Below, in pieces: positions 5,536-20,861 of a DNA stretch of 64,000 bases; the stretch's first letter is position 1; each line of letters begins with the position of its first letter. The notes under the pieces are model-generated. The model worked only from the letters and a program-made list of their open reading frames with translations, was not told where the DNA came from and did no database searches. Made by a program: the position numbers and the translations under genes. Source of the stretch: a virus. Location: the IMG/VR virus record IMGVR_UViG_3300045988_179183; one strand, 5' to 3'.

Positions 5536-7531
5536 TTACGTTAGTATCAACACCTCCGTGTTTTCATTCGCGTAAATAGCCATTTGTTGATTTCTCTCGT
5601 CCCAGTTTGTTCGACCGTTCATAAACAGGATCGTATCCTTACAGTTTTTCAAAATATTTTCGAACGATTCATATTCATTGGACCAGAAAACAACCGTTCG
5701 AAACTGGTAATTCTGCTCAAGCGTGATGATGGCGTAATCACCCTTTCGTCCAGTTTTTATTGCGATTTCATACACATAACCCCCAGCCGTTAAATTATAA
5801 CTTTTCGTTTCCAAGGGATCGTCCACTATTTCCGAAAAATCTTTGAAAGGATACTCCGAATCACCAACCATCTCCTTGAAATAATCCAAGTATAATTTTG
5901 AGTAATTGAAAAACGCCAAACCACACAATTTCTTCTGCCTCAAATTATGCCACCACTCTAGTTTCACCTTATCGGGATTCAACTCAAACACATCTTTTTC
6001 CTTATCGATTTTTACCTTATTAACGGTTCTGTATCGTTTTATAAGTTTTATCCTGTCTATAACGTTTGATATTGATTCTAGCTTATCGAAAGCACCACAT
6101 GAAATCAAATTTTCTATAACACTTTTATTAACGGCACTTCCTTTCTGTGAATGACGGTCTAAAAATTCATCAAAACCAAAGTAGGGGCCGTTCTCGGATC
6201 TTTCCTTCATGATCTCCGCTTGTGCCTTCTCGCCGACCTGTTTCACTGATGAGATTGACCACACCAAACTTTTATCAGTGAAATCTGTCTTGATCTTATC
6301 CGTCGATTCATTAATATCAGGGGGGGTCACCTTGATATTTCCTATTTCATTTATCTCGTGTAGATAAACGGGGAAATCATCATCATCAGCGTAGGAGAAC
6401 GCAACGGACCAGAAAGCTAACGGATAATTTACTTTTAACCACTGACACGCGTATCCTGTGTTTGCATACGCGACCGCGTGGGATTTATTGAACTGATAAT
6501 CAGCCATATTCTCAATTTCCTTCCATGTCTCTTCCGCGTATTTTTGATCAACACCGAAATTCTCGATATAATTTTTCAAAAATCTTTCCCTGAAGGGTTG
6601 AAGTTTCTCCACGTTCTTCTTACCAATCGCACGGCGTGCGCCATCCGCGTCAACAAGATTAAACCCTCCTAACACTTGGAACATTTTCATTGTCTGCTCC
6701 TGCCATATCATGATATACCGGCTACTTTGAAGTATTTCTCCCGCCCCTTTTCTAAATGATACTTCCCTCTCACCCTTTTTACGAAGGATATACTCGTTAT
6801 GGAAATTTCCCTCCATAACCCCCGGTCGATATAACCCAATACAGTTTACAAGCTCTGTTATGTTATCGGGCTTTAACATCTTACAATATCCGGTTAACCC
6901 TTTCGCGCCAAAATGAAATACATCACCATTCCACCCCCTTTGAAAATACGAGTAAACTTTCGGATCATCAAGAGGTAATTCATAGAGGTTGATTTCTTCA
7001 CCAGTATCATCTTTGATTAATTTCAATATATCACCGAACTTACTTAACTGCAAGATTCCCAGAATATCCTCTTTCAAAAAACCCGCGGTGTCAAGTTCAC
7101 CACCCTCCCACTCACTGATCAACATATCACCCTGCCGGCGAATCGGATTCCAATGATACATATCCTTTTCATCCGGGTAAATCATCATGGCACATGCGTG
7201 AATCGATTTCGCCTTAGGTTGACCCTGTATCAAGCCGACCATCTCGATGATCTCCGGGTTTCTGTTAATGAAATTCGCGACATCTTTTTTCTGACAGGCG
7301 ATTCTGAATAAATCATCAAAATCCTTCACACCATCTATTTTAGAAGTAAATGAGTTTACCTCTGCGACGGGGACACCTTTCAACCTACATAGATCCTTGA
7401 CGGCGGCCTTGACTTGAAGAGTCGTGTAGGTTCCCACGGAGCAAACTTGATCGGCACCGTAACGCTCCTCCATGTATCTTTTAACTTCCGGTCTTCTCGC
7501 CATCTCGAAATCAGTATCGATGTCCCTTAGT
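5536..7531 (-). CDS. dnaE: DNA polymerase III alpha (DnaE-type) replicase, 3' exon; the 5' limit is approximate
   Basis: In frame, upstream of the first ATG (7503) and with no start codon, the sequence reads ..RLRDIDTDFE-MARRPEVKRYMEERYGADQVCSVGTYTTLQVKAAVKDLCRLKG. This aligns with E. coli DnaE [51 protein letters not shown]. Downstream is the finger/beta-binding region (FNKSHAVAYA). Confidence 0.85.
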
Positions 7532-8520
7532 CTGGCAGCGAACCGTGCTTGATTCGCTGCCGCTTTTCTAATTTAATTGATTTAACTATATATTCCATTT
7601 CAAATTTTGTTTTATCTGTTTTACAAATCTAGATTTTTCAATAAAAGACATCACCTTTCTCCTTATATCTGTTTCTCTTAAATACACCTCCGTATATAAA
7701 GGAACCCATTTCCTTTCGAATAGCTTGCCTTTCTGAAGAAAAGTAAGTAATGTATCATGATTACCACTCGGTGATAATGTTTTTTGTGCGTCATAAGCAG
7801 ATAGAAATTTATGTACCTCTAAAGTATAAATATTTATCATCACAATCGGTTTCGCATTCGGATTAAGACTCCCTTTCGCAACACCCCGGTCTTTTCGGAT
7901 TACTGAGATATGATCCTTCATTTCCTGGGACCATTTATTCCCATAATTACCATTTTTCCCACCCACTCGTCTCGGCGGCTTAATACCGCCAATTTTTAAA
8001 TTTAGTGTTCGTCGATCTCTCACCCACTGATGATCAACTACACGTTTTTCCTGAATCAATGCATCATCTACGGTATTAAAATACAACAAATTCACTCTCT
8101 TAAACGCACCAACCCCGTACAATCTCACGCAATTACCTAATGGCATTGGTAAAGGGTCCTTGTAATCTTTTAAACCGGTGGAGTAATCCGTCTTGATTCC
8201 GCCACCAATATAAGAATCTTCCACTGTTTTTGATGAATGAACCCCAACATATACTTTTCCGTTTACCATACAGGTTGTTTTATACAAAATATTATAAAGG
8301 TTATTGTCACCCTTAAACGGATTCTTTTGTCCGTTCGAGCATTTTGCTAATATCTCCTGATCCGACACTAACGATTCTATCTCCATCTTTTAAATCTTGA
8401 GCTTTTACATCTAATTTTTCTCCCGATCTAAAAATACACACTTTATCATCAAAATCCAACTCTATATCTAAATTATTATCGAATGTGATTTTTACAACGT
8501 CCACTTCAACTTGTTGACCG
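7532..8520 (-). mobile_element. Probable group I intron carrying a GIY-YIG homing-endonuclease ORF, interrupting dnaE; boundaries are tentative
   Basis: The DnaE reading frame breaks after FERFLNKGR (R codon at 8523..8525). It resumes at RDIDTDFE (7504..7527), which has no start codon of its own. A perfect 9-bp stem (7534..7542 pairing with 7553..7561) lies just before the resumption point. An HEG ORF lies inside. One frame-preserving junction is ..CGT AT | A CTA AGG.., with U before the 5' splice site and G at the intron end. Confidence 0.55.
7586..8386 (-). CDS. GIY-YIG homing endonuclease (I-TevI/Seg-like)
   Basis: The GIY-YIG module reads NILYKTTCMVNGKVYVGVHS...YIGGG. NUMOD3-like linkers are GKNGNYGNKWSQEMKDHIS and GSLNPNAKPIVM. 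There is a C-terminal DNA-binding-like tail. The ORF lies between the two dnaE halves. Confidence 0.8.
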   Translation of the reverse strand: MEIESLVSDQEILAKCSNGQKNPFKGDNNLYNILYKTTCMVNGKVYVGVHSSKTVEDSYIGGGIKTDYSTGLKDYKDPLPMPLGNCVRLYGVGAFKRVNLLYFNTVDDALIQEKRVVDHQWVRDRRTLNLKIGGIKPPRRVGGKNGNYGNKWSQEMKDHISVIRKDRGVAKGSLNPNAKPIVMINIYTLEVHKFLSAYDAQKTLSPSGNHDTLLTFLQKGKLFERKWVPLYTEVYLRETDIRRKVMSFIEKSRFVKQIKQNLKWNI

Positions 8521-9935
8521 ATACGACCTTTATTCAGAAAACGTTCGAATAGCAAATCGTAATCAAACGGGTTAATGTGCGTCAGACCCAATAAATAGGC
8601 GACGAGGGAGCCACAAGCTGATCCACGGCCGAACCCTACGAGTATACCTTGACGTTTACACCATTGGGTGATATCCCAAAGTATCAAGAAATAATCAACA
8701 ACATCTCCGTATTTAATTACATCTATCTCAGTTTCAAGTCTATCAAGATACTTCTCTTGTTCATCAACATCACTTATCCCCATGCTATTAAACCCATCCG
8801 CGACCAAGGATATAAGCATATCAACTTTTGATCCATCATATTTCTTGAACTCCTCCTCGGTCATTTTATATTTAGGAAGATGACGTTGTGATAGATCGAC
8901 CTTGAAATTACTACACCTTTCAGCGATATCATTTGTGTTCTCGATCGCGAATCCGATGATATCAAGCATAATATCTTGGTCATTATCAGAGAATAACTCC
9001 CTAATCTCCATCAAATATTCTTCGTTACATTTGAAGTATTGATTTTTTGAAAAATCGTTACTTATACCCGCGGATGAATTCAACGCTTTTTTCAGATAGA
9101 AATATTCTTGGTCCAAATAATACGCATCACAGATATTTGTGGGCAACATGGAACTTGAGAAATATTCCTGAAGATTCAAAAGATATACCCTATCTCTTTC
9201 ATTTGAATCAAACTTAACTGAATCAAGTTGATAGTATGTGTTCATCAATTCTTTCGGCACATCTTTAAATTGCAGGCTCTTCGGGTCAATCACGATAATT
9301 AATCCCTCTCTCAATGACAGAAACTTTCCTTCATCGATCCTCACATTATTATCAACGTTAATTTCCTTGTTGATAGAAAGAAGGTTCATCCACCCTGTTT
9401 CATCCACGACGTAAACCTTCACATCGTACAGAAGATCTTTCTTTTGATTGAACACGGTAACGGTTTCACCGATCACCGGTTTCAAACCGTGTTTCTGGCA
9501 TTCCAACTGAAATTTAAGCACACCCGCAAGTGTGTTTTTCTCACAGATACCCAAAATACTCACACCGAAAAAATTCGCTTTTCGACACCAATCTCCATAA
9601 TCTCCGGTTCCGTTCAATAATTCAAACGGACCTCTCACTCCCAGAAATGATTCGGTCGGTAAATCACTATCAACCTTACCGATATATTTCAAGAGTTTCA
9701 ACTTCACTTTCGATTCATTACCCTTTCTCAAAGTGTAATACAGACGGCCGAACTTATAGATGTAATTATTCGCAGTGATGGGTGTTCCTATGTAATTAAA
9801 CCCTCGATCAAACAGAAGTCCGTCGACATTGGGCCCTGATAATTCATATGTATCACCATCCATTGTGATAATACCCAGGTCGGAAATATCATATATAAAT
9901 CCATTGCGATCGAGATACGATAACAGTTCTTTCAT
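8521..9935 (-). CDS. dnaE: DNA polymerase III alpha (DnaE-type) replicase, 5' exon; the ORF reads through into the intron as far as 8313
   Basis: The palm region YFLILWDITQWCKRQGILVGFGRGSACGSLVAYLLGLTHINPFDYDLLFERFLNKGR matches the DnaE consensus. An N-terminal PHP-like region is present but lacks the usual His ligands (FLGVRGPFELLNG where E. coli has HLRVHSDYS). Confidence 0.85.
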
Positions 9936-9957
9936 ATTTTAAATATAATGGGAACCC

Positions 9958-9975
9958 TTTTACGGGGCCCCGTAA
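9958..9975. other. Perfect 18-bp palindrome TTTACGGGGCCCCGTAAA in the gap upstream of dnaE
   Basis: Read directly from the sequence. It lies between the stop at 9984 and the dnaE start at 9935. No clear U-run follows on the minus strand, so it could be an operator or a weak terminator. Confidence 0.4.
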
Positions 9976-9983
9976 ATTCAAAT

Positions 9984-10580
9984 TTATATCTCGCCCTGGC
10001 TGGAATCACAACTCGATGCCTCAATTGCCTTAACACACTTGTAAATATACACGTTGCTTTTTCCAAGAATGGTTGCTATTTCAGCTTTTTTCTTTCCCTC
10101 AGAGAGAAGTTGTTTGATTTGAGGTAATAGTGGGTTACTGAGAGAGATCACACCGTTTCTCTTCCCGGTCACTGACTGTTTCTTCGCCTTCTTCTCAGCC
10201 GGTTTTTCATCCACACTTTTATCCGTTTCAACTGTGTGCTTCCTGAAATCATCCGGGTTGAAATTTTCACGGAATGAAAGGATCGCATCCAACTCACTCT
10301 CTTCAAGATCCTTCATATCGCGATCATCAACAATCGCGTCAACCCTGGCGTATAAATCGCATGCGCCAAACGCCGCCAGTTGATCGTAAAATTCGGTTGC
10401 CTGATCGCACTTGCTCTTTACATCCTGACCCAGTTGATCCGCAACCGAATTCTTTCGAGCCTCATATTCTTCCAATGTCTCAACTAATTTTAAATTAGAC
10501 ATTGTGATATAATTTTTAATTCCACGAATTGATGCTTCTTTACGAAGTTCCTCACGGGTCATTTCACTAAACTTTTTCAT
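9984..10580 (-). CDS. Hypothetical DNA-binding protein (N-terminal HeH/Rho-N-like motif, C-terminal HTH-like segment)
   Basis: TREELRKEASIRGIKNY..LKLVETL resembles SAP/HeH motifs. KKAEIATILGKSNVYIYKCVK looks like an HTH. It is preceded by the conserved promoter motif. Confidence 0.4.
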   Translation of the reverse strand: MKKFSEMTREELRKEASIRGIKNYITMSNLKLVETLEEYEARKNSVADQLGQDVKSKCDQATEFYDQLAAFGACDLYARVDAIVDDRDMKDLEESELDAILSFRENFNPDDFRKHTVETDKSVDEKPAEKKAKKQSVTGKRNGVISLSNPLLPQIKQLLSEGKKKAEIATILGKSNVYIYKCVKAIEASSCDSSQGEI

Positions 10581-10644: not shown

Positions 10645-11448
10645 TTATTTACCAACGAATCCAGCAAAAAATCGGTACTTTTCAATATTAAATTTTATGT
10701 CATTCCATTGAGATTGTTGTACATCGATACCCACCATCTTATGAAGCATCACGGGAATTTTTTCTTCAAGTCCGCTATCCGTATATCTTACACCGTGTAA
10801 ACCATGAATAACTGGATTAGATGTATCGATACTTCTGATAAAGTGATACTTATCCTCGTTATATTGGCAAACTTCTTGCGGTAATACTGTGCCCAGTAAA
10901 TGCAACGGCTTTTCACAATCCATAACACCGTGATTGATGAGCTGGTCAATGAACATTTTTCTTCCTCTACAATATGCCTTCGATGTATTCTCATCAGCCG
11001 CGAGACTTAAATAAATGGGTAAGTTGAAAGGTAGCGCAACCATATCACAGCATTCGACCATGCATTTATAGCATTCGACAAGTTCATTCCAACTTATCCC
11101 CTGAACAACACCGATTGAATAGCTGCACGATATTTTCTCCCACGTTCTCGCCATTCTCATCGTTTCTTTCGCATTTCTCAAAACATCGGGTAAAACGTAA
11201 TAAGTTGGCTTCAGTGCCTTAATCCATGAACGAAATCTATTTGCGTCAAATGCCGACCCCAATTCGAACACTGAATTGTCAAGAATTACCTCGCGTCCCT
11301 TGTTAACAAGCGCATCCATGAAAAATTCGAAATAATCGCCACCTATATCGGGATCTTCAAACAAGTGAACAAGTGCGTAATCATAATCAGTCATCGATTG
11401 AACCTTGTTCATAATCGATAACGGTGCTTCATGCGCTATCTTAATCAT
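10645..11448 (-). CDS. Divergent TGT-fold (tRNA-guanine transglycosylase/DpdA-like) TIM-barrel protein; second paralogue
   Basis: Motifs occur in the TGT order: ILDNSVFE (cf. DSGGFQ), VLPDV (cf. LDEC), GVVQG (cf. IVQG), PLHLLG (cf. YLMGVG), SIDTSNP (cf. GIDMFDCV). It is adjacent to queC. Confidence 0.45.
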   Translation of the reverse strand: MIKIAHEAPLSIMNKVQSMTDYDYALVHLFEDPDIGGDYFEFFMDALVNKGREVILDNSVFELGSAFDANRFRSWIKALKPTYYVLPDVLRNAKETMRMARTWEKISCSYSIGVVQGISWNELVECYKCMVECCDMVALPFNLPIYLSLAADENTSKAYCRGRKMFIDQLINHGVMDCEKPLHLLGTVLPQEVCQYNEDKYHFIRSIDTSNPVIHGLHGVRYTDSGLEEKIPVMLHKMVGIDVQQSQWNDIKFNIEKYRFFAGFVGK

Positions 11449-13171
11449 TGTGTTGATATTTTATGGGATCCGTCATTCCGTTTAATTCAAACGCTTCGAG
11501 CCGCTCGGTACAATTATGCACCAAATATCCCTCACAAATAAATGAACCAGCACTAGTCTTAATATCATATACATGTGCCTCCTTAACTGGTTCATCTATT
11601 TTATTTACCACCACTTGGTCTAAAAGCCTTATTGAATTATATGTGCCTAACTTTTCAAGCATCGACGCACGTTTTCCCGCACCGTACTTTAATGTAATTA
11701 TGTACGGTCTTGTTACTCTCCAAGTTTGCATAAGGGTACCGCCCTCTTTAAAACCGGGCGTAACGGATTGCGACCTGTCACACTTAATCCCCAACAATGA
11801 TAATGCTTTATCGATTTGAATACACTTTTCTTTATTCACAATCACTGCTTGGCTTATAGAAAAACCGAATGATCCATTTGATTTATTATGACAAGCACAC
11901 CCATCAGCTATCAACATTCCGTTTAAATACCCGCGCAAATACTCAGGGTGTTCATTAAATTTTGTCTTCTCAAGAAACACAGGACCATAACCGCCACCAG
12001 CACGGTGCATGTTGGTATCCTCCCTGTAAGTGATTTTTACATCACATGGCTTGATATATTTATCATAAAGAGACCAAAATTCTTCCAATACATCGAACTC
12101 CTTTTGAAATGTATGAACACCCCGTGTGTCAATGGATCCATCACCATCAGCAAATCCACGTAAATAACCCAGGGCGAATTTTTCATCATCAACCTCTTTT
12201 CTTGTATTTGATACTGGCCAAAATTTCACCATATAAGTAGCATCCTTTCTCTTCATCTCCTCGTACTTTCTATATCTTGGCCTTAACTTCATATTTGAAG
12301 CATACACATAATGATCCTTCGTTAAAAGAAGACCCGCCATATCATATACCGGTTGAATACCATTATCAAACTTATCCAATACCTTCGCCACACAAATTTT
12401 CTTCGTGTTTTCATCCACGGACCACACTTCGTCTCCAATACAAATATCCTTAATTTGCTTCCATGTATTATCACTCATCAGTACTTTCTGCGATTCTTCT
12501 ATACACGACCCACACCTTCCACACGATCTTCCTTCTGGATCGGGATTATAGCACGTGTGAGTGTTACCCAGAACCAAATTAATTTCATAATCATTGAACC
12601 CGAGGATCGTCATCGCACGTAACCCTTCGGCAAGTACACCGCCCTTATCCATGTGATTGAACGGAGCTTCGTATCCCACTCTTTCACTACCCCAATTCGA
12701 TACTTTAAACGCGTGCTCACAAGCGATTCGAGATTCCTCGGATGTATCAGGATAACAGCAATGATCGCCGCTATGTAGGCCTAAAAACACATCAACATTA
12801 CTCTCCGTTTTATTCGCCCATGAAAGTGCCTTCCCATAAATGATAGCGGAAAAGATCACGTTTCTATTTTCAATAACCGTTGATTTCATATTTTCGGACG
12901 CGTAATGACCTTCCGGTATAGGTTCACCACCTACATGAAGGGACGAATTACTGTCACTGAAACAATCCCTCAGATCGATAATCTGGTGTGATAACTTAAA
13001 CCTCTTACCTTGCAAGAACTCAATATTTCTTTTCACCTTCTCCAATTCAACCTGATGCTTCTGACCGTATTGAAAAGAATAAGCCTTAACTTCGTAATCA
13101 TGAGCAAGTAAATACATGAGCAAGCACGTACTATCCAATCCGCCCGATAAACTTAAAATCGCCTTTTTCAT
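11441..13171 (-). CDS. queC: 7-cyano-7-deazaguanine (preQ0) synthase QueC interrupted by an intein (576-aa precursor, 245-aa mature)
   Basis: PP-loop MKKAILSLSGGLDSTC. The C-terminal Cys cluster SCGRCGS-[intein]-CTERLEAF rebuilds the QueC CxxCxxC..R motif. I prefer the start at 13171 (2 nt after the upstream stop) over the longer ORF start at 13228. Confidence 0.85.
   Translation of the reverse strand: MKKAILSLSGGLDSTCLLMYLLAHDYEVKAYSFQYGQKHQVELEKVKRNIEFLQGKRFKLSHQIIDLRDCFSDSNSSLHVGGEPIPEGHYASENMKSTVIENRNVIFSAIIYGKALSWANKTESNVDVFLGLHSGDHCCYPDTSEESRIACEHAFKVSNWGSERVGYEAPFNHMDKGGVLAEGLRAMTILGFNDYEINLVLGNTHTCYNPDPEGRSCGRCGSCIEESQKVLMSDNTWKQIKDICIGDEVWSVDENTKKICVAKVLDKFDNGIQPVYDMAGLLLTKDHYVYASNMKLRPRYRKYEEMKRKDATYMVKFWPVSNTRKEVDDEKFALGYLRGFADGDGSIDTRGVHTFQKEFDVLEEFWSLYDKYIKPCDVKITYREDTNMHRAGGGYGPVFLEKTKFNEHPEYLRGYLNGMLIADGCACHNKSNGSFGFSISQAVIVNKEKCIQIDKALSLLGIKCDRSQSVTPGFKEGGTLMQTWRVTRPYIITLKYGAGKRASMLEKLGTYNSIRLLDQVVVNKIDEPVKEAHVYDIKTSAGSFICEGYLVHNCTERLEAFELNGMTDPIKYQHND
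11513..12505 (-). mobile_element. Intein in QueC (331 aa), class-1-like, with a LAGLIDADG endonuclease
   Basis: Codon-checked boundaries: GS|CIEESQKVLM at the start and EGYLVHN|CTER at the end. Block B is LLLTKDHYVYA. LAGLIDADG motifs are LGYLRGFADGDGSI and LRGYLNGMLIADGCA. Block F is HVYDIKTSAGSFI. Confidence 0.85.
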
Positions 13172-13172
13172 T

Positions 13173-13757
13173 TTATAATCTGTAATTAAATTCCATAATA
13201 TCCAATACCTGGGAAACTCTTTCGTCAATACTTCCGCTCACATAGTGTATCCCTCGTGGTGCGAAGTCTTGTAACATACGCGCGTTTTTCTCAAATAAAC
13301 GATCGATTTCCTTTTGAAATACTTCATCAGTTGACCGAACTCCGTCGTCCACGATTTTAAACTCCGGCCTCAGTACAATGTGATGGCTGTAAAGGGGCTC
13401 TATATGAAATAGAAGTTGGGTGACCGTGTCAACCATTTCATCCCAGAGAGGCCTATCCTCGCTCGATGACCTGTCCCGGTTATACTCCGTGTAGCATAGA
13501 ACATCTAATAAACATCTATCGGAAATAATATGATCATGCGCTGACATCGCTGACTCGATAATTTCTTTCACATACGAAGTTGCGATCCAAAGTTGATCAT
13601 AAATACCCGCTTCCTTATTAATCTTTATGCCGCGATCATTACCTTTCCTTGAAGGAGATCCCATAAAGAGAGATCCCTTCAAACACTCCTCCTTTTTCAA
13701 CGCCTCAATTAACGTTGTCTTACCTGTGCATTGAGCACCTGAAATTGATATAATCAT
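13173..13757 (-). CDS. P-loop NTPase, NadR/AAA_28-like putative nucleoside or nucleotide kinase
   Basis: Walker A ISGAQCTGKTTL. Kinase-like segments SDRCLLDVLCY and VDDGVRSTDEVFQ resemble the NadR ribosylnicotinamide-kinase domain. Confidence 0.45.
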   Translation of the reverse strand: MIISISGAQCTGKTTLIEALKKEECLKGSLFMGSPSRKGNDRGIKINKEAGIYDQLWIATSYVKEIIESAMSAHDHIISDRCLLDVLCYTEYNRDRSSSEDRPLWDEMVDTVTQLLFHIEPLYSHHIVLRPEFKIVDDGVRSTDEVFQKEIDRLFEKNARMLQDFAPRGIHYVSGSIDERVSQVLDIMEFNYRL

Positions 13758-13786
13758 TTTTAAACAATTAATTTATTTCTAACACC

Positions 13787-13807
13787 ATAAAGATACACAA
13801 AGTGTAT
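13787..13807 (-). promoter_or_regulatory. Conserved promoter-like motif, copy 2 (ATAAAGATACACAAAGTGTAT, preceded by AACACC)
   Basis: Intergenic, about 31 nt upstream of the ATG at 13757. It shares AACACCATAAAGATACACAA with copy 3. Confidence 0.5.
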
Positions 13808-13814
13808 CGAATTA

Positions 13815-13845
13815 TCAACAAAAACAGAGATTATTTTCTCTGTTT
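13815..13845 (-). terminator. Hairpin plus U-run, putative intrinsic terminator after the dCTP-deaminase-fold gene
   Basis: The minus strand reads AAACAGAG-aaaataat-CTCTGTTT followed by TTGTTG. The stem overlaps the stop codon at 13831. Confidence 0.4.
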
Positions 13846-14331
13846 GTCGTTTTGATATTGGCCGTTATATAAATCTTCCTCGTTTACATCCGTGCAATCA
13901 TAACAGTAGAACTGGGCCACGCGGGCGTTCTTCTCGATCGTGATTGTGTGAAACACTTCCATGAACGTACCCATCGAATCAGTGTGAAAACCCGCGTCGA
14001 AAATCGATGAATAAATCCAAGCACCGCACCGGGCAACTGAACTTCGCTGTACTATCCGACCCATTTTGTTTTTGGGTATGTTACAACCTTCAATGAAATC
14101 AACCATGTAATACCCCGGAGGTAGATGCCAAACTTCGTTTCCATTTATATCAGGAAAACATCGAACTTCTTCGTATGAGGGTAACATTGTTTTGCCCTCG
14201 CGGGGTATGAATCCATGACCTTTCACAACACTTACCTTTCTCAACCGAATATCACATCCGTGCTGGGTTAGATTCTCTTCTAAATGATTAACGATAACAC
14301 CTTCTCCGTGTAATTCCTTTCCGTTTAACAT
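13831..14331 (-). CDS. dCTP deaminase/dUTPase-fold protein
   Basis: GRIVQRSSVARCGAWI...FDAGFHTDSMGTFMEV...ARVAQF matches the dCTP-deaminase family pattern (grSS.aR.G, dPGf.G..tlEl, aQl). Confidence 0.6.
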   Translation of the reverse strand: MLNGKELHGEGVIVNHLEENLTQHGCDIRLRKVSVVKGHGFIPREGKTMLPSYEEVRCFPDINGNEVWHLPPGYYMVDFIEGCNIPKNKMGRIVQRSSVARCGAWIYSSIFDAGFHTDSMGTFMEVFHTITIEKNARVAQFYCYDCTDVNEEDLYNGQYQNDKQRK

Positions 14332-14355
14332 AATCTCTAATTTATTAAAATTTAA

Positions 14356-15252
14356 CTATTCAATTATTTCATCATTCTGTTTTTCATACAAGAACTCTCT
14401 CGCTCTCGCGTCAGCGAACGCGTACAAAACTATATCTCGACTCAGATAATGATACGGTATCCTGCCAGATAGATCGGGGCCGGCACTCCCATACGCATCT
14501 TGCCCCGGTACGAGGGTTCCCTCTGCCACTTTCTTCAAAAAATTATTACGTGCCTTCTCAATATTGATGGCGTACCTGAAAATAGAGAAATCGACCGAAT
14601 CCGGCATGACAAACCGGGTTGTTTCAACGTTTGAACATCCCAGGAGATGAACGTATTTCCCTTTATCGCGAGCGTACTTCATCATCTTTCCCAGTTCATC
14701 CCTGTACACATGCCATTCCCTACCCTGAGCCAGACCTCCTATCGAAAGGATGGGGTAGAGGGGCGAGTCACAGAGATCCTTCCAGTATTGAAAACCCTGA
14801 TGCATTTTAAATACCGGTGCGGGATAGTACCCTGTTATTTCCTTGATCTCGTCTCTCAGATAATTTTTAGGTGATAACAGGTTATCATCTTTTCTAAAAT
14901 ACTCGTTATCAAGTTCAAAACACATTTTAAACGGATACATTTTAAGAAACCGAAGAAACTTTTTCTTCATTTTCTCGCATTCATTCCAAAAATCAGGGTT
15001 GTTTTCACCCAGTTTCTTCTGTTTTTTGAATAATGTGAAACCACCGGAATCCAACCATATTCGATCGCCTCCAACAACGGTTTGAATAAATTTAATATAC
15101 CCGGCGGTCATATCAACGGTTGAAATTAGATAGTCGTTATCATGTGCAAGCAAAAGTTTTTCCAAGACCTTATCGGACCTACAACTACACACCAGACCAC
15201 CACCCAATCCCATCACAAGCCTTTTTTTAGGTTTTTCAAACATATCAATCAA
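14356..15252 (-). CDS. dpdA: DpdA-like DNA (7-deazaguanine) transglycosylase, TGT family
   Basis: TGT motifs: WLDSGGFTLF, FELDNEY, LSIGGLAQG, YVHLLGCS, PDSVDFSIF. It is embedded among the preQ0 synthesis genes. An alternative start lies at 15243. Confidence 0.7.
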   Translation of the reverse strand: MIDMFEKPKKRLVMGLGGGLVCSCRSDKVLEKLLLAHDNDYLISTVDMTAGYIKFIQTVVGGDRIWLDSGGFTLFKKQKKLGENNPDFWNECEKMKKKFLRFLKMYPFKMCFELDNEYFRKDDNLLSPKNYLRDEIKEITGYYPAPVFKMHQGFQYWKDLCDSPLYPILSIGGLAQGREWHVYRDELGKMMKYARDKGKYVHLLGCSNVETTRFVMPDSVDFSIFRYAINIEKARNNFLKKVAEGTLVPGQDAYGSAGPDLSGRIPYHYLSRDIVLYAFADARAREFLYEKQNDEIIE

Positions 15253-15682
15253 TACCAGCTATTAATTTATCAAGTTCATCTTTGTTATCTTGAAGGGTTG
15301 TGATACCGATTTCTTTCATCGCATCCTTGTTGCCTGATTTTTCAACAAGACGTTGAAGGCCTGTATAATTCCATGAGGAATACTCACCAACTTTATTATC
15401 AGCGACCAAAAAACCAACCTTTTCCTCGTCCGTTAAACCACTAACGACTAAAACATCAAACTCTTCAACGCCAAGTAGCTGTAACGCTTTGAATCTCGTG
15501 TTTCCCGCAAGTATCGTTCCTTCTTCATCAACAACAATAGGATTGATATATCCATATTCTTGGATGCTTTTTGCAACAATTTTCGCGGATTTCGAATTTT
15601 TTCGAGGATTCAATGGGTGGCAGCGTATGTCACCCACGCTCACCCATTTAATTTCCTTCCGTATTTTCTTTATCGCCGACAT
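15245..15682 (-). CDS. ParB N-terminal-domain (ParB/Srx-like) protein, possible DpdB analogue
   Basis: VSVGDIRCHPLNPRKNS...IQEYGYINPIVVDEEGTILAGNTRFKALQLLG is a typical ParB-like nuclease/NTPase domain with a GxxR box. Its stop overlaps the dpdA-like start by 8 nt. Confidence 0.65.
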   Translation of the reverse strand: MSAIKKIRKEIKWVSVGDIRCHPLNPRKNSKSAKIVAKSIQEYGYINPIVVDEEGTILAGNTRFKALQLLGVEEFDVLVVSGLTDEEKVGFLVADNKVGEYSSWNYTGLQRLVEKSGNKDAMKEIGITTLQDNKDELDKLIAGID

Positions 15683-15685
15683 ATT

Positions 15686-16327
15686 TTATTTTCTCCCGAG
15701 TTTATAAATCTGTATCGCTCTTAAAAACTCATCTCGGCTATTCATCTCATTTGTTAAAAACGCCCCCGAACAATAGTGGGTTGTCATCGTACTATTATCT
15801 TCCGCGCCCCGCATACTCACGCACATATGTTCCGCCTCAATATAAACTGCGATACCCAGCACTGTGTCGCCGAATATGTTAACCAAATAATCATGAATCT
15901 GACGAGTTAATTGTTCTTGTAATTGAGGCCGTTTGGCGAACCAGTGAACTATTCTGTTTAGTTTCGAAAGACCAATAACTTGGCCACTTTCCTTGCTGAT
16001 ATACGCCAAACTACAGAATCCTGTGAACGGAAGTAAATGGTGTGAACACAATGAATTCACCTCGATCCCATGTTCAATTACCATACCTGAGTATCCTGAA
16101 CTTGGGAATACCGCCAATTTCGGAGGTGCAGAATACGCACCTGACGTGATTTCATTGACAAACATTTTCGCAACCCTGTACGGTGTTTTTATCATGTTAG
16201 GGTCATTCTTCCAATCATACCCCAGGGCCTCCAAGAACTTACCGTACGCCTCGGTGGCCCTTGCCAACATCTCGTTTCTATCATCATCGGAAAGAACGAC
16301 GTTCCCTCCTGCCATTATTTTTTTCAT
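15686..16327 (-). CDS. folE: GTP cyclohydrolase I (FolE)
   Basis: Active-site motifs SLCSHHLLPF and EAEHMCVSMRG, plus QERLT-like QEQLTRQI. Confidence 0.9.
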   Translation of the reverse strand: MKKIMAGGNVVLSDDDRNEMLARATEAYGKFLEALGYDWKNDPNMIKTPYRVAKMFVNEITSGAYSAPPKLAVFPSSGYSGMVIEHGIEVNSLCSHHLLPFTGFCSLAYISKESGQVIGLSKLNRIVHWFAKRPQLQEQLTRQIHDYLVNIFGDTVLGIAVYIEAEHMCVSMRGAEDNSTMTTHYCSGAFLTNEMNSRDEFLRAIQIYKLGRK

Positions 16328-16352
16328 ATTTCGTGTTTTATCTCGTTTTTAA

Positions 16353-17117
16353 CTAAGCATCTCTCTTATCTCCGAAGATTATTATATGTAAGCGGTCAGA
16401 GTAGAAGTAGCCCAAATCTATACATCTCTGTGCCAACCATTTTCTTTTCTCTGCCAGTTTCTCCTCGGTATCCCCCTCCGGCATCAGATAGACTATTACA
16501 GGCCAGAAGGGGTCCAGTTTAGATACCTCCTTCTTAATTTTCCGAACTTGTCTCTCGACTTCCTTTATATCATCCTCCGAGGACACCACATATTTCAACT
16601 GCGAGAATTTCGATTCCATGATCCATGACACTATAGCGGGGATATTCTCCCTCGTTTTCGCGTGTTTCTCCGCGAATTCGCCCGAACTCGGAATTGAACT
16701 CTTCAATTTAGGTGAGATTGATACGACGTCTACGTACGTATCCTCATCCAGTACATCACCTCTCGCGATGGTTCCGTTCGTTTCCATGCTCACACTCAAC
16801 TTATGTCTCCGACCTATCTCGATCAACGATCTCAACAATTCGGGATGAAGGGTCGGTTCTCCCCCGGTAATAAGCATGCATTTTATCTGAGGGTTCATGA
16901 TTATGATATCGACGACATCGTTCAATGAATATTTACCCTTTTCCGGGTTCCACGAGCTGTAGGCCGTGTCACATATACTCCCTTTAAAAGTACATCTCAG
17001 GTTACACCCAGATGTTCTTATAAGAATATGGGGGACCCCCACCTTCATACCCTCTCCCTGTATACAGGTGTGCAAATCAATAATCGGTTGAATTTCTGAA
17101 TAATCCATTTTTAACAT
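16353..17117 (-). CDS. queE: 7-carboxy-7-deazaguanine synthase QueE (radical SAM)
   Basis: IQGEGMKVGVPHILIRTSGCNLRCTFKGSICDTAYS, followed by GGEPTLH. The Cys spacing is Cx3Cx6C rather than Cx3Cx2C. Confidence 0.8.
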   Translation of the reverse strand: MLKMDYSEIQPIIDLHTCIQGEGMKVGVPHILIRTSGCNLRCTFKGSICDTAYSSWNPEKGKYSLNDVVDIIIMNPQIKCMLITGGEPTLHPELLRSLIEIGRRHKLSVSMETNGTIARGDVLDEDTYVDVVSISPKLKSSIPSSGEFAEKHAKTRENIPAIVSWIMESKFSQLKYVVSSEDDIKEVERQVRKIKKEVSKLDPFWPVIVYLMPEGDTEEKLAEKRKWLAQRCIDLGYFYSDRLHIIIFGDKRDA

Positions 17118-17344
17118 AAATAAGCGTTATACAATTCTATAAACTCGGCGAGATCCAGTTCTGAGAATCTCCGTTCTTTCGCAATCTCTTTAATAAGATC
17201 AAGTTGATTTTCATAAAGCTCGTCCGCCATCTCACCATACCCGCTCACCCTTAAATCAATCACAGGCAATGAAAGTTCAAATGCCAGACTTTCATCAAAC
17301 CCATAGCGATCAACAAGATCATTTAGTTCCTTTTTCGTTATCAT
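17111..17344 (-). CDS. Hypothetical small acidic protein (77 aa)
   Basis: ORF overlapping both neighbours by a few nt, suggesting translational coupling between queD and queE. Confidence 0.5.
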   Translation of the reverse strand: MITKKELNDLVDRYGFDESLAFELSLPVIDLRVSGYGEMADELYENQLDLIKEIAKERRFSELDLAEFIELYNAYLC

Positions 17345-17916
17345 AACTTCACTTGTAGTTCAACCTTTGGGTTCACGAATTTAATCCCTCGAAAAAGTTT
17401 ATGATAAATCTCAGTTTTTGCCAGTGAAGGGCTAACTTCTATTTCTTCGGGATACATTTCCAAGTATCTATCATAATCATTTCGATCCGATTCGGCATAA
17501 CCAGTATCTGTTTCATGAACTCGCACTGATTGCACAACCACGTTACCCTCACCATTGTTAAATTCTGTTTTTTCCAATATCGATTCAAAACAAGCGAAAA
17601 ACATGGATGAGAGTAATTCAGCGGAGGGATTGCAAGGTAAAATTATCCACCTATCATTCATCGCCTGTATAAAATTTTTGTAAACCTCGTTATCCTTCGC
17701 CCACAATAAATGAGTATGATCGAATAAATCAACGACTTCTTTAAAATTACCAAGAAGACCGAAATCGACGACCATCCCTGCGTTATCCAAACGATCCGAG
17801 GTCAAAAATAACTCAACTTTATAGCTGTGTCCGTGAATTGAATGTGAACATCTGTCCGATGTACAATTTCTCACAATATGGCTTCCCTCAAACTTAAACA
17901 ATTTTCTAATTATCAT
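17341..17916 (-). CDS. queD: 6-carboxy-5,6,7,8-tetrahydropterin synthase QueD (PTPS family), long form
   Basis: FKFEGSHIV..CSHSIHGHSYKVELFL and VRVHETDTGYAE match PTPS/QueD signatures. Confidence 0.8.
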   Translation of the reverse strand: MIIRKLFKFEGSHIVRNCTSDRCSHSIHGHSYKVELFLTSDRLDNAGMVVDFGLLGNFKEVVDLFDHTHLLWAKDNEVYKNFIQAMNDRWIILPCNPSAELLSSMFFACFESILEKTEFNNGEGNVVVQSVRVHETDTGYAESDRNDYDRYLEMYPEEIEVSPSLAKTEIYHKLFRGIKFVNPKVELQVKL

Positions 17917-18433: not shown

Positions 18434-19445
18434 ATATCGTTTTATCTAGGTTATTTAAATAAAAATTCAAAGGATCCTGCATATCGATCAGAACTCGTTG
18501 TAAATATTGCATCGTCATATTTCCGGGATCAACATCTTTATCCTTTATCCGACAAACTTTCACATTGAAAAATTTACTCAAATGGAGTGCTGTTTCCTTG
18601 CTTTCCCTTAAAGCGTCCTCATCGTACATTAAGATCACCGTTTTGACGTTCGTTTTTCTTAATTGATTCAATTGACCCGGACTTATCTTCTTGCCAAATG
18701 TGAAGCAACATGCGATTTCTTGGTTAAATCCCAGGTTAATCAGATAATCAACGTTCACCTTATCAAACAAACCCTCAACCAATATCACCGTTTCTGTTTC
18801 CGGCCCGATAAAATTATACCCACCCAGAATATGAGAAAAACCATCCTGACTGTTCATGTATCGTAGAACCATTTTGCCAATACCTTCCTTGAATAACGTT
18901 CTATTATTATCATGCCACGTTTTATTGTATCGTGACCTTGCCAGCCACGCGACAACCCTATCTCCTTCCTTAATCTTGAAGATAATGTAATTATGCTTGG
19001 CTAACGTCTCCTCCAAAACTGATTTAGTGTATGATGGTTCAAATTCTTCATAGTGTTCCTTTAAAAAATGCCTGCTCTCCAGATACGGATCGTTGACCAA
19101 AGGTTTCAACCCAATGGGGAGTCTTGTGTTTGATTGAACATTCTCTTCAATATCATCCTCTTCTTTGATTAAAGGTGTTAATTTAGTATTTTTTTTCGAC
19201 ATTTGGTAATCATTTCTTATCAAATCTTTTCGGTCCATTTTGATAAGATAATTACGAATACTTGTTTTCGTTCCGCATTTAAAACAATGGAATACTGCCG
19301 AATGTCCATCGTCCGTGAAAATTAATGCATTCTTCCCATCTTTCCCACAAAACGGGCACGGTTCTTTCGAACTTAACCAACCTTTTTGGCCGAAGGGCTT
19401 GAGGTTTAATTCGGCGATTATCTCATCCTTATCAATAATCATCAC
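18390..19445 (-). CDS. DNA primase (zinc finger plus TOPRIM)
   Basis: Zn ribbon CPFCGKDGKNA...FHCFKCGTK. TOPRIM motifs VILVEGLFDKVNV and LMYDEDA. It lies immediately downstream of the helicase. Confidence 0.8.
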   Translation of the reverse strand: MMIIDKDEIIAELNLKPFGQKGWLSSKEPCPFCGKDGKNALIFTDDGHSAVFHCFKCGTKTSIRNYLIKMDRKDLIRNDYQMSKKNTKLTPLIKEEDDIEENVQSNTRLPIGLKPLVNDPYLESRHFLKEHYEEFEPSYTKSVLEETLAKHNYIIFKIKEGDRVVAWLARSRYNKTWHDNNRTLFKEGIGKMVLRYMNSQDGFSHILGGYNFIGPETETVILVEGLFDKVNVDYLINLGFNQEIACCFTFGKKISPGQLNQLRKTNVKTVILMYDEDALRESKETALHLSKFFNVKVCRIKDKDVDPGNMTMQYLQRVLIDMQDPLNFYLNNLDKTIYDTSERKINGKGIF

Positions 19446-20860
19446 ACAACCCTCCCTTTCTGTTCGTTTGAATTAGATCTTGTTCGTTTTCTCCCACCAC
19501 CATGTGTGTGTGTAATTTTTAAATCATAGAATTCCTCTAGGGTTCTCTTTCTATCATAGAACCGTCCGGCGTTATAATTCGTTGCCACTTTAAAAACAGG
19601 ATCGATATTTTCATAATCACGGACCTTATCCTTGAAAATCCTACAAGTTTTATGTTTCACCTCCTCTAATGTTTGATTAATAGAAAATACCCAACTAAAA
19701 GGTTGAACAACAGTTCTATCACCTTCCGCGTAGCTTCGATCTATAACTTTTTCTTCGTCATTCCAAACTTCAAAAGGAACATCACCCGTCTGAATCGCGG
19801 TTACACAGGACATACTGAATTCCTCACACATATTTTTCAATCTTTTTCCACACTCCTGAAACTTATATTTTGGTCGGGGGTCATTATCAAAACTCGGTAT
19901 ACCCGTTCTTATCAGGTTAAATGAATCTATGATTAAAATCCTAGGAAACTTACCCACTAATTTCTTATATTCGAGGCATATCGTCCTCACATCAAGAATG
20001 GTCGCATCACCAAATTTCTTGAAACTGTAAATTTTAATATCATTCGCATAGGATTCTATATCCTTCAATGTCTTATGTAAATCATCAAGCTCATCCTGGG
20101 TGAAATTATCCTCCTTCAAATCGGTATACGTCTTAAAGGTCCACATCTGGGAATATTTCATATGTATTTTCTCTTTCGCCTCCTCACATTGGATATGAAG
20201 AACGTCTGCCCCGGTAAGTGCGGATGTTAACCCCCTCCATCGTAACACTGTTGACTTTCCCACCCCGGATCTGGCCAACCATAACTCAGTGTCGCCCACA
20301 TCAATTCCCCCGTATTTATCATCAAGTGCATCTATTCCGAATGCAACAGGAGGCTGCTGCTCTGTTTTTTCGGCCCAATCTTTCCGGCATTTATCAAAAT
20401 CACTAAACACCCCTAAAAACATCTCCGACTGAGCCCTTAATGAAAATTCCAAAATCCTCGTACTTTCCTCCTTGCTTAACCTCATCGCCTCTTCTTTTTT
20501 TCCTTCACCATAAAGATCAACGATGGCCTTGTTAAGGAGAAGAAATTCACTGTCACGAATATAGCTTTCAAGTTGATTTAAAAGGACTTCGTCATCAACA
20601 ATTTGAGATTCCTTTATCTGATCAACCGCGAGTTGAACAGACTCCATGTCACTATATTTTTGGGAGATAACCCCCAGTGAAGGTATTTTATCATATTGGT
20701 GAAACTGTTCTTTCGCATCCTTCAAAATAAATTTATACCCCACTTCCTCTTTAGGAATAAATTTAAAATCAAGGTGTCTGTCAACAATAAACATCATTTC
20801 CTTGCTTAGAAACATTTTCCGAAACAGTTCACCTAAAAAATTTGCGTTTATTTTTTCCAT
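19442..20860 (-). CDS. DnaB-family replicative helicase
   Basis: Walker A LARSGVGKSTVL and Walker B ILIIDSFN, with a RecA-like C-terminal domain. I prefer the start at 20860 (MEKINANF), 2 nt after the terL stop. Confidence 0.75.
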   Translation of the reverse strand: MEKINANFLGELFRKMFLSKEMMFIVDRHLDFKFIPKEEVGYKFILKDAKEQFHQYDKIPSLGVISQKYSDMESVQLAVDQIKESQIVDDEVLLNQLESYIRDSEFLLLNKAIVDLYGEGKKEEAMRLSKEESTRILEFSLRAQSEMFLGVFSDFDKCRKDWAEKTEQQPPVAFGIDALDDKYGGIDVGDTELWLARSGVGKSTVLRWRGLTSALTGADVLHIQCEEAKEKIHMKYSQMWTFKTYTDLKEDNFTQDELDDLHKTLKDIESYANDIKIYSFKKFGDATILDVRTICLEYKKLVGKFPRILIIDSFNLIRTGIPSFDNDPRPKYKFQECGKRLKNMCEEFSMSCVTAIQTGDVPFEVWNDEEKVIDRSYAEGDRTVVQPFSWVFSINQTLEEVKHKTCRIFKDKVRDYENIDPVFKVATNYNAGRFYDRKRTLEEFYDLKITHTHGGGRKRTRSNSNEQKGRVV

Positions 20861-20861
20861 A

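Follow-up and report, generated by a model that had tools for sequence, protein, structure and literature searches.

How do phages that encode a DpdA3-type enzyme replace every guanine of their DNA? The question is raised by a ten-gene island in the IMG/VR virus record IMGVR_UViG_3300045988_179183, which we analysed over a stretch of 64,000 nucleotides (hereafter the window). The island combines the genes for making the 7-deazaguanine precursor preQ0 with two different proteins that share the fold of tRNA-guanine transglycosylase (TGT). The DpdA3 subfamily was named by Hutinet et al. 2023 and comprises proteins of Flavobacterium phage immuto, of the Campylobacter CP220 group and of phiST (CGPG_00065) (PMC10516641). 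In the DpdA3 phages tested, 100% of G is replaced, by dADG in CP220, dDG in phiST and fdPreQ1 in immuto, an extent that would be unusual for a post-replicative enzyme, given the 0.1-30% reached with other DpdA types (PMC10516641). When DpdA3 was expressed by itself in E. coli no activity was obtained, whereas cells infected with CP220 contained the ADG nucleoside; the study that defined the subfamily settled, by default, on a post-replicative origin for every 7-deazaguanine modification (PMC10516641).

The island very probably represents a DpdA3-type modification locus with two modules and a 7-deazaguanine product. Its last gene belongs to DpdA3 and travels with a kinase-like P-loop protein (AAA_28), while a second, atypical TGT-fold gene is coupled to a small ParB-domain protein (ParB-N). 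All ten open reading frames (ORFs) lie on the minus strand, with the boundaries given in an earlier note made from the sequence alone, and are transcribed in the order QueD, 77-aa ORF, QueE, FolE, ParB-N, 298-aa TGT-fold protein, dUTPase/DCD-fold protein, AAA_28 protein, intein-containing QueC and 267-aa TGT-fold protein. The earlier note had read the locus as a 7-deazaguanine DNA-modification island with the full route from GTP to preQ0, and searches with Pfam, PHROG and NCBIfam models confirmed FolE, QueD, QueE and QueC. It had also held that the accessory genes fit no described variant. This view was not supported: DpdA3 was published in 2023 (PMC10516641), the AAA_28 gene stands beside DpdA3 in immuto, CP220 and Campylobacter phage CC_R7, a gene of the dCTP deaminase (DCD) fold occurs in 18 of 53 DpdA3 clusters, and ParB-N is the rule beside a large family of phage DpdA-like genes. 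The unusual part is the co-residence of two DpdA modules in one phage, a combination that is rare.

Two distinct TGT-fold enzymes in one island

By its sequence, the 267-aa protein clearly belongs to DpdA3 as published. In tblastn searches of 50,697 phage genomes it matched the immuto 'DNA guanine transglycosylase, DpdA' with 43.3% identity over 98% of the query (2e-57) and proteins of the CP220 group with 37.5-38.6% identity (37.5% to CP220; 1e-40 to 3e-43); phiST CGPG_00065 was not reached by this search. Phage CC_R7 (PQ092953; loci L001 and L039 of our collection), described as a Firehammervirus close to CP220, has a DpdA3-like gene that is 27% identical to that of the window, compared with 37.5% for CP220's own. 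No Pfam family matches the 267-aa protein. Its AlphaFold2 model is a TIM barrel with a predicted local distance difference test (pLDDT) score of 93.8, for which Foldseek returned Z. mobilis TGT as the best match in the PDB (E 1e-5, TM 0.62 relative to the query), followed by QTRT1. The motifs LDNS.FE, PD, HLLG and DTSNP are invariant, and the residues D57, D88 and D208, unchanged in 36 sequences, are located at strand ends; we infer that they correspond to D102, D156 and D280 of TGT. The family is large, with 1796 database clusters at 90% identity and more than 500 viral contigs.

The 298-aa protein, hereafter TGT298, forms a small, Pfam-invisible branch of the DpdA enzymes that profile comparisons link to the DpdA1 type, and it is a predicted transglycosylase. 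It matches no Pfam family at E <= 0.1 (and thus not PF01702), no NCBIfam family and no PADLOC model, and its family profile gave only chance matches to PDB sequences. A profile search of 1.84 billion representative proteins recovered a core family of 7 clusters at 50% identity (E < 1e-30), and the only match in an isolated phage is that of CC_R7 (47%, tblastn), where the ParB-DpdA-like pair is annotated as 'DNA binding protein' and 'hypothetical'. With its AlphaFold2 model (pLDDT 93.6) as query, Foldseek ranked TGT first among PDB entries (1.5e-4), and in BFVD the leading matches were 'queuine tRNA-ribosyltransferases' of phages (down to 4e-8). Invariant in 42 sequences are D68-S-G-G-F, D115 (within ELDNE), G172-G-L-A, H202-L-L-G-C and D221, which we mapped onto TGT catalytic residues by motif order and strand position rather than by residue-level structural alignment.

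Comparison of profiles with hhalign connects TGT298 to a sister family of about 250 aa, here called A3, with a probability of 99.7% (E 4e-27). Members of A3 in turn reach the DpdA genes of 9g-type, Seurat-type and iggy-type phages, mycobacteriophages and phi38:2 as well as the PADLOC model of the bacterial enzyme bDpdA; one member, P0128, matches the PADLOC DpdA model at 2.3e-7 and has matches in 218 phage genomes, where the annotation is DpdA or queuine tRNA-ribosyltransferase. When the TGT298 profile was aligned with single DpdA1 sequences from JenK1 and phi38:2, the motifs lined up without reaching significance, and the link to DpdA1 therefore rests on the intermediate family A3. Profile searches, which the earlier note had proposed as a check on this gene, thus upheld its kinship with TGT (phrog_887, 1.6e-10; A3, hhalign) even though PF01702 is absent. 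That note had taken TGT298 for the island's DpdA and the 267-aa protein for a 'second, divergent' TGT-fold protein. The assignment of TGT298 to the TGT family stood, on the PHROG match, the profiles and the fold, and the roles are reversed: the 267-aa protein is the recognisable DpdA3, 43% identical to the immuto enzyme, and TGT298 is the atypical one. A duplicated dpdA gene was also considered and rejected, as hhalign of the two families covers only 22 columns around HLLG (68% probability); the two are therefore not recent paralogues.

Each enzyme travels with its own nucleotide-binding partner

For each island protein, a hidden Markov model was built and run over all ORFs of the collected loci, among them a control set of 80 viral loci of the DpdA1-like A3 family (L109-L188, 1.18 Mb). 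The AAA_28 gene is homologous to the DpdA3-neighbouring genes labelled 'thymidylate kinase' in immuto, CP220 and CC_R7. Of 53 dereplicated DpdA3 clusters, 37 contain it; among the 34 that extend 5 kb or more on either side, the number is 27. It nearly always lies 0-1.7 kb from DpdA3, and this close pairing, within about 2 kb, recurs in at least five lineages. In the window, immuto, CP220, CC_R7, L193, L195 and L067 the two genes are neighbours or have one or two genes between them, and they stay together under differing gene orders, including cases in which the que genes are elsewhere (CP220 and L067). In the 80 A3 loci, by contrast, there was no AAA_28 kinase-like gene, nor any DCD-like, MazG-like or DpdA3 gene. 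These loci have a different partner: ParB-N is encoded in 74 of the 80, and in 67 of the 71 that could be scored the DpdA-like gene follows directly downstream of it, mostly with a 4-bp overlap. The two distributions thus tie the kinase to DpdA3 and ParB-N to the DpdA1-like enzymes.

The second pairing extends to the TGT298 clade, where ParB-N accompanies the enzyme in six of seven sampled lineage representatives (CC_R7, L035, L037, L192, L193 and L194; not detected in L191). In Cellulophaga phage phi38:2 a ParB-like gene also overlaps dpdA, lying just downstream of it, and no ParB gene was found in the 9g-like phage JenK1. L037 has a 244-aa ORF close to its ParB-DpdA pair, which was tested as a hidden DpdA3 and proved not to be one. 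Only about a third of the ParB-N/A3 loci (L109-L188; also L190, 5642..6106) contain que genes. The window's ParB-N, correctly recognised in the earlier note as a 145-aa ParB-like product whose gene overlaps that of the TGT-fold protein (PF02195, 4.3e-8; 8 bp), is 53% identical to the product of the gene upstream of the CC_R7 TGT298 homologue, and its GxxRxxA nucleotide-binding box (AGNTRFKA) is conserved across 76 partner proteins. Among PADLOC models it best matches one for a type II methyltransferase, in the ParB domain at the N-terminus (2e-16), and it resembles the ParB domains fused to phage DNA methyltransferases rather than DpdB. Orthology to DpdB was rejected, given the lack of a PADLOC DpdB match, the presence of GxxRxxA instead of DGQQR and the missing C-terminal domain.

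The AAA_28 protein, in which the earlier note had rightly seen a NadR/AAA_28-like P-loop protein (PF13521, 4.5e-13), belongs to a family whose profile aligns over its full length with the ribosylnicotinamide kinase domain of NadR, the best relative in the PDB, and with thymidylate and deoxynucleoside kinases. The P-loop, a DR..D motif and a lid arginine are invariant. A canonical thymidylate kinase was rejected as an identity for the window protein (17.7 bits against TIGR00041, cut-off 83; PF02223, E 0.015). These features bear on the view that the kinase-like and dUTPase-like genes serve general deoxynucleoside triphosphate (dNTP) supply in an early replication cluster (dUTP to dUMP, dTMP to dTDP), leaving the que genes and the two DpdA genes as the whole modification system. 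The PHROG label of the kinase family is 'thymidylate kinase', the island sits in the replication module, and in immuto ThyA and an Nrd gene are encoded within a few kb, all of which would suit such a role. We nevertheless regard it as unlikely: the score against the thymidylate kinase model is far below its cut-off, the kinase keeps its place beside DpdA3 across gene orders even where the que genes map to another site, none of the 80 DpdA1-like loci has it, and it stands between modification genes in immuto (DpdN-kinase-QueF) and L195 (DpdN-kinase-QueC).

Pyrophosphatase-like genes of DpdA3 islands

The 166-aa protein of the island looks like a dUTPase of the archaeal type, not a deaminase. 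Its score against the archaeal dUTPase model NF002598 (94.9 bits, below the cut-off of 130) is better than that against the dCTP deaminase model TIGR02274 (39.8 bits, cut-off 92.8); the best PDB sequence match is 9w59, a 'probable dUTPase' (9e-15), and the motifs RSS..R.G and DAGF are present. The earlier note had called it a dCTP-deaminase-fold protein. The fold held (PF22769), and deaminase function was rejected: the glutamate at the deaminase position (E138 of E. coli Dcd) is not conserved, with Gln in L016 and His in immuto-like homologues, in an alignment whose E. coli and M. jannaschii reference sequences were entered by hand.

Of the 53 DpdA3 clusters, 18 have a DCD-like gene and 21 have a MazG-like (PRA-PH) gene, and no cluster has both (Fisher p = 1e-5). 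CP220 encodes an HD-kinase fusion beside DpdA3 in their stead. phiST has a dUTPase/MazG-like gene in the same block as DpdA3, and in L193 a PF00692 dUTPase gene lies directly upstream of it. In L195, a trimeric dUTPase domain with all five canonical motifs is fused in frame to DpdA3 (P0297, 1150..2376), followed by QueF, an unknown ORF, DpdN, AAA_28, QueC and DnaE. This distribution may be read in two ways: either the island needs a dNTP pyrophosphatase, or the single housekeeping dUTPase of each phage happens to be encoded there.

Immuto-like DpdA3 islands also contain a gene for a small phosphoribosyltransferase (PF00156; L002, 6843..7238, and 33 other DpdA3 loci), which is absent from the window. 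As such an enzyme joins a base and phosphoribosyl pyrophosphate into a nucleotide, it is another hint of a nucleotide-level step.

A tentative two-arm mechanism

DpdA enzymes are known from the literature to exchange G for preQ0 in DNA, and a route through modified dGTP was proposed earlier for Campylobacter phages (PMC6884629). The reading that we favour, as a tentative one that falls slightly short of an even chance when taken in full, assigns the two modules of the island to different levels. preQ0 would be made from GTP by FolE, QueD, QueE and, after intein splicing, QueC, and its insertion would be shared by two modules, each a TGT-fold enzyme with a nucleotide-binding partner. In the first arm, acting on the nucleotide pool, the pyrophosphatase would lower a competing or donor dNTP to the monophosphate (dNMP), DpdA3 would swap guanine for 7-deazaguanine on a deoxynucleoside or deoxynucleotide, and the AAA_28 kinase would start re-phosphorylation, so that the phage DnaE polymerase could incorporate the modified dNTP and reach complete replacement as in DpdA3 phages. 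In the second arm, ParB-N, translationally coupled to the DpdA1-like enzyme, would act with it on duplex DNA after replication. ParB-N may serve there as an NTP-dependent factor for DNA loading or targeting, and the pair would be a functional analogue, not an orthologue, of bacterial DpdB and bDpdA, converting the G residues left by the pool arm. Candidate genes for the three roles of a pre-replicative pathway (pyrophosphatase, base-modifying enzyme and kinase) are clustered and co-vary with DpdA3. The earlier note had allowed for a different insertion mechanism, and we likewise judge a non-standard one a reasonable possibility.

A bolder version, which we consider possible and on balance somewhat doubtful, holds that DpdA3 is not a DNA transglycosylase at all. 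It would be the first TGT-fold enzyme to act on a free deoxynucleoside or deoxynucleotide and, together with the AAA_28 kinase and the dNTP pyrophosphatase, would feed 7-deaza-dGTP to the polymerase; the ParB-coupled DpdA-like enzyme would carry out a separate, NTP-driven 'mop-up' at the DNA level, with ParB-N as the general phage counterpart of DpdB. If true, action on free nucleotides would account for the 100% replacement and also for the failure to see activity when DpdA3 was expressed by itself in E. coli.

The same failure would equally be explained by a missing partner, and this is one reason to consider that all modification is post-replicative. Both TGT-fold enzymes would then act on duplex DNA, perhaps differing in sequence context or efficiency, each with an NTPase helper (AAA_28 for one, ParB-N for the other), and the dUTPase-like protein would be an ordinary phage dUTPase. 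Such a scheme agrees with the published post-replicative proposal (PMC10516641) and with the strict dependence of bDpdA on ATP hydrolysis by the ParB-like ATPase DpdB (PMC10164549). Furthermore, every DpdA type examined here has a nucleotide-binding neighbour, and the enzymes of L195 and L193 look like canonical dUTPases. It fits less well with the AAA_28 family, which aligns over its full length with small-molecule kinases and whose DR..D motif and lid arginine are typical of phosphoryl-acceptor binding, with the additional HD-kinase fusion encoded beside DpdA3 in CP220, with the phosphoribosyltransferase of many islands, and with the extent of replacement in DpdA3 phages. We consider this scheme doubtful, if far from negligible.

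Several points weigh against the two-arm reading. The sampled DpdA3 loci are dominated by one broad lineage, so that their counts are not independent, and most of the control loci belong to phages of smaller size that have fewer genes of nucleotide metabolism. The P-loop protein could be the NTPase partner of a DNA-level reaction, as DpdB is for bDpdA, instead of a kinase. The substrates known for the trimeric dUTPase and DCD folds are pyrimidines, and the fusion partner in L195 is canonical; the fusion P0297 itself was seen on one contig, where loss of a stop codon or an assembly error is possible. The pyrophosphatase may simply be a housekeeping dUTPase, for which mutual exclusivity would be expected too, and the phosphoribosyltransferase of many immuto-like islands points to a nucleotide-level step without any need for DpdA3. 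Finally, the window is part of a genome, and QueF, DpdC or a similar protein could be encoded outside it.

The preQ0 pathway and the predicted base

According to the literature, FolE, QueD, QueE and QueC together make preQ0, and all four are encoded in the island. QueD has the Cys...HGH motifs and lacks the DpdL motif LxxxHRHxF (PMC10516641). The 77-aa ORF between queD and queE matches nothing in Pfam, PHROG or NCBIfam. QueC, whose true start is probably the ATG at 13171, has the PP-loop SGGLDS, and its nearest homologue in an isolated phage is that of immuto (39.6%). The score of 114 bits against TIGR00364 is below the cut-off of 150; an intein breaks up the match.

This intein, noticed already in the earlier note, was borne out by Hint, Intein_splicing and LAGLIDADG_3 domains, by its junctions (...SCGRCGS|CIEES...YLVHN|CTERLEAF..., with Cys1, a terminal His-Asn and Cys+1) and by empty-site alleles in relatives, where QueC reads SCGRCGSCTERLEAF. 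It is inserted before the last zinc-ligand cysteine, and splicing restores the zinc motif CxxCxxC (C...CGRCGSC). Its presence varies among relatives more than 95% identical elsewhere, with intein-less alleles in L004, L006-L008 and L017. The element is thus of the standard Cys1/His-Asn/Cys+1 kind, its splicing is predicted to give a normal QueC, and it is a mobile passenger outside the modification chemistry.

We scanned 56 ORFs of the window with Pfam and PHROG; outside the island, all ORFs of 90 aa or more were included save two (100 and 114 aa), for which a phmmer search alone was used. QueF, DpdN, a Gat/glutamine amidotransferase, a DpdC-like protein and DpdL were not found in these scans, nor did the Pfam scans, over the visible 64 kb, reveal any family corresponding to DpdC (DUF328) or to the restriction genes dpdD-K. 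In addition, immuto QueF, DpdN, phosphoribosyltransferase and MazG-like hydrolase gave no match as phmmer queries against all window ORFs. The absence of QueF, Gat-QueC and DpdC-like genes from the window, as claimed in the earlier note, is therefore supported, in the case of QueF by both kinds of search.

As the window encodes no enzyme recognisable as acting on preQ0 downstream of QueC, parsimony favours dPreQ0 as the predicted DNA base, in agreement with the earlier note. We add dADG as an alternative, which would arise if QueC released its amide intermediate, because the CP220-group phages also encode QueC homologues and carry dADG. The window's QueC is closest to that of immuto, which must make preQ0.

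A mixture of two bases in the virion DNA, for example CDG, ADG or DG inserted by DpdA3 and preQ0 by the DpdA1-like enzyme, is suggested by several ParB-DpdA-like loci that have QueD, QueE and FolE2 with no QueC within 10 kb. We find it quite unlikely, as immuto, which has DpdA3 only, carries a preQ1 derivative, indicating that DpdA3 can handle post-QueC bases, and as no decarboxylase (DpdL) or other tailoring gene is found in the window. That the que genes merely boost a queuosine precursor for host tRNA and leave the DNA unmodified, as suggested in the literature for phages with que genes and without DpdA, is hardly credible here: the operon includes two genes of the DpdA family whose catalytic-type motifs are intact, and all tested DpdA3 phages have modified DNA (PMC10516641).

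Distribution and mosaicism of the dual-module layout

The ten-gene set is kept in about 20 related IMG/VR contigs from several metagenomes and persists, with QueD, QueE and DpdA3 exchanged for other alleles, in relatives about 85% identical; a more distant relative, L193 (49% identity), is syntenic with the window. Within this group the island is a mosaic. L006, L012 and L020, near-identical in neighbouring genes, have a QueD that is 46% identical or a QueE that is 71% identical, and at the 85% level L014 and L015 possess a 38%-identical DpdA3 allele and an added DpdN formyltransferase. Swapping of modules within the cassette thus appears to be frequent.

DpdA3 and the ParB-DpdA-like pair occur together in the lineage of the window, in three other metagenomic lineages (L193, L035 and L036), and in CC_R7, the sole isolate with both modules. 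DpdA3, ParB and the DpdA-like gene are contiguous in L035 and L036, and the two modules form separate loci in CC_R7. None of about 65 immuto-like DpdA3 loci has the ParB pair. In the open literature we found no mention of the dual layout, the kinase-DpdA3 pairing or the phage ParB-DpdA pairing.

Genomic context

The window as a whole consists of minus-strand phage DNA with a GC content of about 40%. It derives from a myovirus, as seen from genes for a tail sheath (50585..52246), a baseplate wedge and a major head protein (56315..57835); no tRNA genes were found in it. A megablast search of the island against 50,697 phage records gave no match, and the phage is without a close sequenced isolate. 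On one side the island is followed by a DnaE-type polymerase in two ORFs (the first with PHP and the N-terminal part, the second with finger and HHH part), then by an SbcD-like phosphoesterase and RecA with an intein; on the other side lies a helicase. These neighbours place the island inside the replication module. The polymerase also abuts the DpdA3 islands of CC_R7, L193 and L195 and is about 3 kb away in immuto. The DnaE gene is likewise in two ORFs in L193 and is a single gene of 1126 aa in L195. Within the island, a hairpin and a promoter-like site, if real, would split it into a queD-to-dUTPase-like unit and a kinase-queC-dpdA3 unit and so separate the two arms. The coordinates of these features are listed in the table.

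Features of the modification island and its neighbourhood (window coordinates)
Feature	Coordinates	Strand	Evidence or remark
Ten-ORF island	10645..17916	-	Transcription order queD to dpdA3; overlaps or gaps of at most 73 bp
QueD (6-carboxytetrahydropterin synthase)	17341..17916	-	PF01242 (PTPS), E 3.5e-22; TIGR03367, 1.3e-18
77-aa ORF, conserved within the clade	17111..17344	-	Same position, flanked by queD and queE, in close relatives and in those at the 85% level
QueE (7-carboxy-7-deazaguanine synthase, radical SAM)	16353..17117	-	PF04055, 5e-11; phrog_2076 QueE-like, 1e-44; several TIGR QueE models, ~1e-18
FolE (GTP cyclohydrolase I)	15686..16327	-	PF01227, 1.3e-48; NF006824, 4e-48
ParB-N (ParB/Srx fold) domain-only protein, 145 aa	15245..15682	-	PF02195, 4.3e-8; phrog_620, 1e-33; 8-bp overlap with 14356..15252
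TGT298, predicted divergent DpdA1-like TGT-fold transglycosylase, 298 aa	14356..15252	-	phrog_887 'queuine tRNA-ribosyltransferase', 1.6e-10
dUTPase/DCD-superfamily nucleotide pyrophosphatase-like protein, 166 aa	13831..14331	-	PF22769, 1.6e-13
Terminator-like hairpin	13822..13845	-	Consensus scan only; only sizeable intergenic gap of the island
Promoter-like site after the hairpin	13818..13790	-	Consensus scan only
AAA_28 P-loop nucleoside/nucleotide-kinase-like protein, 194 aa	13173..13757	-	PF13521, 4.5e-13; phrog_2107, 1e-27
QueC (7-cyano-7-deazaguanine synthase), intein-interrupted	11441..13228	-	PF06508, 4.6e-36
Intein, 331 aa, LAGLIDADG homing endonuclease	11513..12505	-	Pfam Hint, Intein_splicing, LAGLIDADG_3
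DpdA3-subfamily TGT-fold transglycosylase, 267 aa	10645..11448	-	phrog_19058, 2e-46; 8-bp overlap with queC
DnaE-type DNA polymerase in two ORFs	8313..9935 and 5536..7503	-	PHP, DNA_pol3_alpha, finger and HHH_6 domains
266-aa ORF between the DnaE parts, overlapping the first	7586..8386	-	Without family match
DnaB-like helicase, other side of the island	19442..20884	-	PF03796, 5.6e-7

Further observations concern the surroundings of the island, all on the minus strand unless noted by position only. Between dpdA3 and the polymerase lies a 198-aa ORF without a family match (9984..10580), whose product has a C-terminal helix-turn-helix-like stretch and whose gene is followed by a strong terminator-like hairpin (9951..9971). 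Four inteins are encoded in the 64 kb. Besides that of QueC, one splits RecA (235..2235; PF00154, 2e-72) and contains Hint and LAGLIDADG domains, and two, bearing homing-endonuclease domains, reside in a 1337-aa large terminase (20862..24875), the first with Hom_end_hint and Hom_end at residues ~125-424 and the second with Intein_splicing and LAGLIDADG_3 at ~683-1054. In the head-gene region, a 580-aa protein (60746..62488) combines a NUDIX hydrolase domain (E 3e-20) with a C-terminal DUF5856; the NUDIX family includes dNTP pyrophosphohydrolases, and the product could bear on the exclusion of dGTP. Four consecutive ORFs of 254-265 aa without a Pfam match (52487..55603), possibly a tandem array of paralogues, lie between the tail and head genes.

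Significance

The layout of the window bears on how DpdA3 phages replace every G and makes the question directly testable, with both modules in one operon as a natural system for separating two routes. In the literature that we searched we found no discussion of two of its elements, namely that DpdA3 is mostly encoded with a small-molecule-kinase-like P-loop protein, usually together with a nucleotide pyrophosphatase, and that a large phage DpdA-like family is translationally coupled to ParB-N. DNA fully substituted with 7-deazaguanine resists most restriction enzymes, and its formation is of relevance to phage therapy, anti-defence biology and the enzymatic synthesis of modified DNA.

Comparison with known systems

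In phage T4, complete replacement of one base is associated with a triad of the dCTPase gp56, the dCMP hydroxymethylase gp42 and the dNMP kinase gp1. The window, in which the corresponding roles are putative, shares with T4 and with the Z-genome phages (DatZ, MazZ, PurZ; PMC8065100, PMC8342488) the triad of pyrophosphatase, base-altering enzyme and kinase beside a polymerase. It would differ from both in that the base-altering enzyme is a TGT-fold transglycosylase, and base exchange on a mononucleotide has no known precedent.

The bacterial Dpd system (bDpdA, DpdB and DpdC; PMC10164549), which inserts preQ0, resembles the second module in placing a TGT-fold DNA transglycosylase next to a ParB-fold nucleotide-binding protein. 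The comparison is offered as a functional analogy only. Neither TGT-fold protein of the window reaches the PADLOC DpdA model, the window has no DpdC and no dpdD-K, and its ParB-N is a domain-only protein of 145 aa with a GxxRxxA box, whereas DpdB has a DGQQR motif and a C-terminal helical domain (PMC10164549).

Among phages with DpdA1-type enzymes (9g/JenK1, CAjan/Seurat, iggy, mycobacteriophages and phi38:2; PMC6884629, PMC10484667), the likeness lies in the DSGGF, GGLA and H.LG motifs that TGT298 keeps and, for phi38:2, in a ParB-like gene that overlaps dpdA. The 9g-type phages differ in having no ParB gene, and 9g DpdA works alone in E. coli (PMC6884629).

The closest counterparts are the DpdA3 phages (PMC10516641), with which the window shares a DpdA3 homologue, FolE, QueD, QueE and QueC, an AAA_28 gene beside DpdA3, a nucleotide pyrophosphatase and a nearby DNA polymerase. 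It lacks the QueF and DpdN of immuto and the DpdL of phiST; the predicted end product is therefore dPreQ0, which, unlike in this prediction, is the final base in no characterised DpdA3 phage. The pyrophosphatases differ as well, being of the DCD/archaeal-dUTPase type in the window, MazG-like in immuto and of the HD type in CP220. To the set of these phages the window adds the QueC intein and a second, ParB-coupled DpdA-like gene.

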